A stretch of 64,000 nucleotides of DNA. It comes from Escherichia coli (GTDB lineage Bacteria; Pseudomonadota; Gammaproteobacteria; Enterobacterales; Enterobacteriaceae). The translations under genes were made by a program, and so were the position numbers. Location of the stretch: assembly GCF_030384885.1 (NCBI RefSeq), contig NZ_CP128613.1; one strand, written 5' to 3'. This document shows, one piece after another, positions 2,409-13,575 of the stretch. Below the pieces are notes generated by a model. It was given only the letters and a program-made list of their open reading frames with translations, had not been told where the DNA came from and searched no databases. Position 1 is the first letter of the stretch; each line of letters begins with the position of its first letter.

Positions 2409-3428
<1,020 letters not shown>

Positions 3429-3470: not shown

Positions 3471-6182
<2,712 letters not shown>

Positions 6183-12648: not shown

Positions 12649-12668
12649 GATTTACCTGGCCTTTCATT

Positions 12669-12682
12669 TGTTATGGGTAACG
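12669..12682 (-). promoter_or_regulatory. Candidate GntR operator (proximal) of gntT
   Basis: TGTTATGGGTAACG, palindromic around GGGTAAC and similar to the distal site, about 20 bp upstream of the gntT ATG. Confidence 0.4.
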
Positions 12683-12797
12683 TCAATTTTCTGACGACAA
12701 ACTCTAATTATCCCAATCGGGAACAGAGATATTGCGGCACCACGACTGATACCCACTAAAACTAATTATTGTAGTCAGATGTCAGGAGTATGTTTGG

Positions 12798-12814
12798 TAC
12801 CCACGTGAATGATA
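12798..12814 (-). promoter_or_regulatory. Candidate GntR operator (distal) of gntT
   Basis: Reverse complement reads ATGTTACCCGTATCATT, matching the remembered GntR operator half-palindrome ATGTTACC...; in the gntT upstream region. Confidence 0.55.
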
Positions 12815-12999
12815 CGGGTAACATCTGGCGTTTGAGAATCACCAGAGCGGGGTAAATTTAAATTATGAGAGGTTGGTCATATTATCGCGGGGAAACGTAG
12901 GGACTGGATTTGCCGAGGCAATGTAGCGCCAACGCCTGGCAGACGGCCCGATAAGACGCTTTAGCGTCGCATCGGGCAATCTATAAAAGAGAGGATAAC

Positions 13000-13575
13000 T
13001 TAGTAGTAAGAGTGTTCGCCGCGCTGGTGTTCGGTGAGATCGCGTACACCTTTCAGCTCCGGGAATTCGTTCAGCAGCTGCTTTTCGATCCCTTCTTTCA
13101 GCGTCACATCGACCATTGAACAACCGTTACAACCGCCGCCAAATTGCAGAATGGCGTAACCGTCTTCGGTGATTTCCATCAGCGAAACGCGACCACCGTG
13201 ACCGGCAAGCTGTGGGTTGATCTGCGACTGCAGCATATACTCCACGCGCTCCATCAGCGGCGCATCGTCAGCTACTTTGCGCATTTTGGCGTTTGGGGCT
13301 TTCAGCGTCAGCTGAGAACCCAACTGGTCGGTAACAAAGTCGATCTCTGCATCTTCCAGGTAAGGCGCGCTTAACTCATCAACATACGCGGTCAGCAGGT
13401 CAAATTTCAGGGCAGTGTCGGTGGCTTCCACAGCGTCCGGCGGACAATAAGAAACGCCACATTCAGCGTTAGGCGTGCCAGGGTTAATCACAAATACGCG
13501 GATTTGTGTCCCTTCTTCCTGATTTGCCAGCAGTTTGGCAAAGTGCGCTTGTGCAGCATCGGAAATACGGATCAT
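13000..13575 (-). CDS. nfuA: Fe/S cluster biogenesis protein NfuA
   Basis: 191 aa; [29 protein letters not shown]... with a C-terminal Nfu domain CNGC motif. Confidence 0.95.

Follow-up and report, generated by a model that had tools for sequence, protein, structure and literature searches.

The nfuA-gntT intergenic region of Escherichia coli: a probable pair of GntR operators at the promoter and in the leader of gntT

Locus and elements of the control region

The DNA analysed here, a stretch of 64,000 nucleotides referred to as the window, is part of an Escherichia coli chromosome, and its positions 12649-12999 are exactly the 351-bp intergenic region between nfuA and gntT. A 1-kb query around the sites described below found a 100 %-identical counterpart in strain 2013C-4282 and had matches in 5424 of the 5426 complete E. 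coli genomes. According to the RefSeq annotation of the 100 %-identical record, the gene order is malQ, gntT, nfuA, gntX, bioH and rpnA, and the GntT protein displays 100 % amino acid identity to MG1655 b3415 across the aligned residues 17-438. The genes gntR-gntK-gntU are annotated at a distance of 35 kb from gntT, outside the 64-kb window, in the 100 %-identical genome NZ_CP027579.1, which hence contains the gene of the cognate repressor; despite its name, E. coli GntR is a protein of the LacI/GalR family (PMC3877293). The coordinates of all features are compiled in Table 1.

Table 1 Features of the gntT control region and its flanking genes (positions in the window)
Feature	Position	Strand	Basis
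gntT CDS, high-affinity gluconate transporter, 438 aa	11332-12648	minus	ORF list; RefSeq annotation of the 100 %-identical record
Translation-initiation region AAAGGCCAGGTAAATC before ATG, including Shine-Dalgarno (SD) sequence	12649-12664	minus	conservation; SD inferred from sequence
gntT 5' untranslated leader, ~154 nt	12649-12802	minus	5' end inferred
GntR operator 2, 16-mer ACGTTACCCATAACAA	12668-12683	minus	3 mismatches to consensus ATGTTACCCGTAACAT
Small leader hairpin TTCCCGATTGGGA	12711-12723	minus	predicted (single-sequence fold and alifold)
-10 hexamer TATCAT, inside operator 1	12809-12814	minus	promoter scan
GntR operator 1, 16-mer ATGTTACCCGTATCAT holding the -10 hexamer	12809-12824	minus	exact single match
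-35 hexamer TTCTCA, 18-bp spacer to -10	12833-12838	minus	promoter scan
Candidate CRP-like 22-mer TAATATGACCAACCTCTCATAA	12863-12884	minus	position, partial conservation, literature
REP element 3' of the nfuA stop codon	12946-12977	minus	20-nt inverted repeat; REP-type pattern match
nfuA CDS, upstream neighbour of gntT	13000-13575	minus (as gntT)	ORF list; RefSeq annotation

Alignment with MG1655 revealed a single base difference from ~225 bp upstream of the gntT ATG to the ATG, namely G for A at 12804, 5 nt past the -10 hexamer, and SNPs together with a 10-bp indel in the nfuA-proximal part of the intergenic region. None of the differences in the control region touches a regulatory site, and this near-identity means that experiments on gntT of K-12 apply directly. 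The region shares with that of K-12 the gene, its neighbours, the 16-bp operator 1 and the number of sites (two for GntR and a candidate one for CRP), and differs from it in the G at 12804, the 10-bp indel and a rare upstream spacer/REP allele. The SNP at 12804 gives the sequence CACGTG; a 46-mer around it is present in the version of the window in 382 genomes and differs by 1-2 nt in ~4000.

The promoter was found by a consensus scan of the region, which returned only one promoter on the minus strand. The sequence GTGATTCTC at its -35 hexamer is conserved across genera. Set 7 nt after the -10 hexamer, the transcriptional start would lie at about 12802; relative to this inferred start, operator 1 is centred at -14.5 and operator 2 at +127.5, and the ATG begins at +155. 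Class I CRP promoters are characterized by a 22-bp site of the type TGTGA-N6-TCACA centred near -61.5, -71.5 or -82.5. The CRP-like site upstream of gntT is centred at -71.5, given the start at 12802, has two mismatches to TGTGA-N6-TCACA in its core (TATGA-N6-TCTCA) and is semi-conserved across genera. Since a CRP consensus scan at this stringency was not above chance (20 sites found versus 25.8 expected), so that the sequence match alone is at chance level, the site was assigned on the basis of its position, its partial conservation and the literature: CRP regulation of gntT is named in the title of Peekhaus & Conway 1998, and one CRP site is attributed to gntTp in a preprint (bioRxiv 2024.12.09.627516). 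A sigma-70-like sequence on the plus strand (TTTAAA-17-TATTAT, 12857-12885) overlaps the CRP-like site and faces nfuA in antisense orientation; it was dismissed as probably due to chance in AT-rich DNA.

Upstream of these elements, the REP element represents an imperfect GC-rich palindrome of the GATGCG..CTTATC type in the intergenic region 3' of nfuA, with a sub-threshold match to the REP-derived Rfam entry naRNA4 (33 bits versus a gathering score of 59.5). It is located outside the gntT switch. An indel of 10-12 bp relative to MG1655 and EcN adjoins the REP element, and the 46-mer 12890-12935 of the spacer 12885-12945 occurs in just 18 of 5426 complete E. coli genomes, which indicates that this hypervariable part of the intergenic region is present in the window as a rare allele.

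Within the leader, the translation-initiation block is near-invariant in eight enterobacterial sequences. Most pairs of the predicted hairpin TTCCCGATTGGGA persist in the other genera, apart from a few one- or two-sided changes (alifold). In the 5'-terminal part of the leader (12734-12802), the terminal GCACC can pair with a GGTGC ~60 nt downstream, and this pairing exhibits a few compensatory changes across genera. Both the GCACC/GGTGC pairing and the hairpin may act as a stabilizer of the mRNA 5' end.

Two probable GntR operators upstream of gntT

Two GntR operator-like palindromes had been proposed upstream of gntT in the first-pass annotation, and both were located there. The 17-nt form of the first, ATGTTACCCGTATCATT, has one occurrence in the 64-kb window, at 12808-12824 on the minus strand. 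It had been placed at 12798-12814, where the minus strand reads ATCATTCACGTGGGTAC; the sequence of the palindrome is hence real, and its earlier position was 10 bp off. Operator 1 differs by one mismatch from the consensus ATGTTACCCGTAACAT, which is credited to Porco et al. 1997 in a quotation in PMC10450161, and is identical in MG1655, where operators 1 and 2 correspond to positions 3546383-3546398 and 3546524-3546539, respectively. Operator 1 equals the 16-bp E. coli GntR operator, with TATCAT as -10 hexamer, credited to Peekhaus & Conway 1998 in bioRxiv 2023.01.10.523462. The second palindrome was correctly positioned from the outset, its core CGTTACCCATAACA being found at 12669-12682. It is a weak palindrome with symmetry confined to the GTTA/TAAC arms, and is one mismatch away from the 14-mer GntR motif TGTTACCCATAACA derived from RegulonDB/PRODORIC (PMC2811016). 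Operator 2 is situated in the 5' UTR, 20-35 nt before the gntT ATG, is separated by 3 nt from the conserved block AAAGGCCAGGTAAATC-ATG downstream of it and is spaced 141 bp from operator 1 (centre to centre). The earlier designation of the whole region as a leader applies to operator 2, which is part of the transcribed leader, and not to operator 1, which overlaps the -10 hexamer of the promoter.

Scanning the whole 64 kb with the consensus ATGTTACCCGTAACAT, allowing up to three mismatches and using shuffled sequences as controls (n = 100), returned operators 1 and 2 as the sole sites (shuffle mean, 0.23). Three strand-matches were observed, a number reached in 0 of 100 shuffles. The same two sites only were obtained in the 64 kb with the tighter core TGTTACCCNTAWCA at up to one mismatch (0.03 expected). 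Both sites fit the ~16-bp palindrome ATGTTACCCGTAACAT with its core TGTTACC-N-GTAACA and are located within the 351 bp upstream of gntT, that is, in the control region of a gene of the GntR regulon. The lone SNP relative to K-12 in this stretch is outside both of them.

The expectation of two GntR operators at gntT agrees with the literature, in which two GntR sites besides the CRP site are reported for gntTp; this preprint gives no coordinates for them (bioRxiv 2024.12.09.627516). GntR represses PgntT reporters more than 5-fold (PMC13386637), and in the presence of gluconate it no longer binds to the gntT promoter (PMC2230225). A literature search for operator sequences retrieved two and no others, the 16-mer that forms operator 1 and the motif derived from RegulonDB. 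From its sequence and placement, we infer that 12668-12683 corresponds to the published second GntR site of gntT. In the 1998 study by Peekhaus and Conway, one operator was reportedly assigned to the -10 hexamer, another to a position far downstream and CRP to a site at about -71, a layout that agrees with the geometry found in the window.

Conservation of the sites and paired operators in the GntR regulon

Species-representative genomes were searched with the operator-1 pattern ATGTTACCNGTANCAT only, operator 2 having no part in the retrieval. Following tblastn with GntT of the window, ~20 informative loci were recognized among the matches listed, the rest being mostly chance matches in unrelated phyla; this sample is small and conditional on the retention of operator 1, lineages without it being invisible. 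Among the matches listed, gntT orthologues beside an operator-1 match are those of E. albertii, two Citrobacter species, Enterobacter cloacae and Enterobacter sp. Bisph1, joined by Superficieibacter, a soil MAG, Pseudescherichia vulneris, two Yersinia species and Acerihabitans.

Operator 2 is present in all listed orthologue loci of the Enterobacteriaceae, at -35 to -20 from the ATG (-34 to -19 in Superficieibacter), and seven enterobacterial lineages among the matches listed have it at -35 to -20. Its 14-nt core GTTACCCATAACAA is invariant in Escherichia, Citrobacter, Enterobacter, Superficieibacter and the soil MAG, within a leader of just 47-68 % identity. The longest invariant runs of the alignment are the 16 nt of operator 1, the 14-nt core of operator 2, the SD/start region and 11 nt within the gntT CDS; the invariance of operator 1 is partly imposed by the retrieval pattern, whereas that of operator 2 is not. 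The interval between the operators (125 bp in the window) displays 47-79 % identity to the window across the aligned lineages; despite this divergence, its length is 124-127 bp in seven lineages. Such a conserved length suggests a constraint on distance, as judged from the alignment.

Other arrangements were observed as well. Pseudescherichia vulneris has kept both operators at a spacing of 65 bp, its leader being ~76 bp shorter, and gntT of Yersinia and Acerihabitans is preceded by two operators offset by 14 bp, with none near the ribosome-binding site (RBS). The spacing in the former and the adjacent operators in the latter indicate that the distal geometry is not obligatory. The CRP-like site and the -35 hexamer of P. 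vulneris are intact, and the paired operators of Yersinia and Acerihabitans form a 30-bp super-palindrome, ATGTTACCGGTATCATGATACCGGTAACA. A third, weaker GntR-like sequence, CTGTTACCCGTATCTT, was noted in the soil MAG at -296 to -281 from the ATG (3 mismatches), as was one in E. albertii at -292 to -277 (4 mismatches). Each precedes operator 1 by ~120 bp; the window has no such sequence, the corresponding position being filled by the REP element and the spacer.

Within E. coli, the B2-type leader allele of EcN contains many SNPs, which extend up to the edges of both operators, with none inside either operator and none inside the CRP-like site or the -35 hexamer. In 4487 of 5426 E. coli genomes, a 46-mer around operator 2 is unchanged, as against 18 genomes that have the 46-mer of the spacer between the CRP-like site and the REP element. 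Across genera and diverged E. coli alleles alike, the two sites are constrained relative to their flanks, and the EcN SNP pattern together with the conserved 46-mer is a clear phylogenetic footprint of two predicted protein-binding sites. At least two deeply diverged alleles of the gntT leader exist in E. coli, a K-12-like and an EcN/B2-like one, the latter resembling the leader of E. albertii; they may reflect an old allele or recombination.

Paired sites were also detected at other promoters of the regulon. Two overlapping GntR sites offset by 13 bp precede gntK of MG1655 (positions 3124-3152 of locus L123), a tandem arrangement described as functional and as shared by over half of the GntR-regulated operons of gamma-proteobacteria (Ravcheev et al. 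2014, PMC4052901). The gntKU promoter has the repressor, the motif and the number of two sites per promoter in common with gntT (Tsunedomi et al. 2003a; PMC4052901). It differs in that the gntK sites overlap at the 13-bp offset, whereas at gntT 141 bp separate the two, the second being located in the 5' UTR. At edd of MG1655, GntR-like sites are located in the promoter region (4578-4593 of locus L124) and, 222 bp away, at 4800-4815, where the consensus-like sequence TTGTTACGCGTAACAA occupies nucleotides 13-28 of the edd CDS. The gene edd is hence similar to gntT in combining a promoter-region site with a predicted start-proximal one, and dissimilar in the 222-bp spacing and in the location of the second putative site inside the CDS rather than before the RBS. 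Tandem GntR sites with an offset of 13-14 bp were found at GntP-family paralogues of Vibrio, Endozoicomonas and Pectobacterium, and a pair of GntR sites 144 bp apart at a GntP-family paralogue of Haemophilus. Paired sites are usual in the regulon, in tandem at gntK and as a promoter site plus a start-proximal site at edd.

Mechanism of the switch and alternative explanations

The region most probably (probability about 0.9) is the standard gntT control region of E. coli, with the palindromes as its two GntR operators and GntR and CRP as its regulators. A GntR dimer bound to operator 1 would cover the -10 hexamer and deny RNA polymerase access to the promoter. Operator 2, which directly precedes the ribosome-binding site, would serve as an auxiliary operator that strengthens repression, most likely by cooperating with operator 1 via a DNA loop, and may also block the elongating polymerase. 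Gluconate would free GntR from the DNA, upon which cAMP-CRP at the -71.5 site would activate the promoter thus released. Occlusion by operator 1, release by gluconate and activation by CRP are the best-supported part of this mechanism; the role of operator 2 as an auxiliary operator, by loop or as an independent roadblock, is a prediction from its sequence and location. Comparable architectures are known from lac (O1/O2) and gal (OE/OI), which are controlled by repressors of the same family as GntR and combine a promoter-proximal operator with a downstream one in the transcribed region. LacI tetramerizes via a C-terminal helix, and GalR forms loops with the help of HU. The likeness of gntT to these two systems is one of architecture only.

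It is extremely improbable that operator 1 alone is functional and that 12668-12683 is a decayed or chance look-alike devoid of a regulatory role. The three mismatches to the consensus and the weak internal symmetry of operator 2 would fit such a view, as would its lack at the corresponding position of gntT in Yersinia and Acerihabitans. Its core, however, is invariant across genera and E. coli alleles amid a highly variable leader and one mismatch away from the RegulonDB-derived motif; moreover, ~0.2 sites per 64 kb are expected, and fewer still within 141 bp of operator 1, and two GntR sites at gntTp are on record in the above-mentioned preprint. Conservation of operator 2 for a function of the leader at the RNA level, i.e. 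translation control, sRNA pairing or mRNA stability instead of binding of GntR to DNA, would account for its location in transcribed sequence, 8-9 nt ahead of the conserved SD block, and for the invariance of the adjacent block AAAGGCCAGGTAAATC. The leader fold is, however, no more stable than that of shuffled sequences (z = -1.36), a scan of the leader with Rfam covariance models matched no family, and the consensus structure is weak (alifold covariation term, -1.03 kcal/mol), with operator 2 forming only an invariant 4-bp self-hairpin free of covariation. The leader hence exhibits neither an Rfam match nor a stable fold with covariation. As operator 2 also fits the DNA motif of GntR, and as GntR sites typically come in pairs in this regulon, an RNA element was rejected as the main explanation and is considered very improbable.

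Tentatively, and with less than even odds, operator 2 may act independently, either as a roadblock to transcription or as an occupancy sink, with no loop to operator 1. At 10.5 bp per turn, the spacing of 141 bp amounts to 13.4 turns, which does not obviously place the two operators in phase for a loop; the spacing differs between lineages (141, 65 and 222 bp), and the LacI/GalR family, of which GntR is a member, is mostly dimeric (PMC3877293), no sign of GntR tetramerization having been seen. This is countered by the above-mentioned constancy of the interval in seven diverged lineages, which points to a distance constraint, and by the distances of 65, 141, 143, 144 and 222 bp, all of which deviate by no more than 0.2 turn from an integer at 11.0 bp per turn, though not at 10.5, a phase match that comprises only a handful of cases, too few to count as a test. 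Cooperative or loop repression is also said to have been proposed by the original authors. A more far-reaching interpretation, in which the distal placement of operator 2 is under a constraint of length or phase, implying a GntR repression loop that replaced ancestral overlapping tandem sites at enterobacterial gntT, is unlikely. If a loop does form, repression would perhaps be linked by it to the region of ribosome binding; should such a loop have been put forward as early as 1998, the novelty would be confined to the comparative and evolutionary aspects. The sites could, in addition, be targets of the GntR paralogue IdnR/GntH and integrate GntII/idonate signals as well as those of GntR, a notion drawn from the title and summary of a study by Tsunedomi et al.; it is somewhat doubtful and would add to the GntR/CRP model rather than replace it.

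The gntT promoter/operator region is already known and contains nothing surprising to specialists. Its rediscovery serves as a positive control in that the operators were recognizable from raw sequence, with a slip of 10 bp. Modest additions to analyses of the RegPrecise type are the invariance of operator 2, the leader that is variable in sequence and conserved in length, and the distribution of tandem versus distal layouts by lineage. For E. coli, the region represents a classic repressor/activator switch, by which the uptake of gluconate is restricted to conditions that offer gluconate and lack better sugars.
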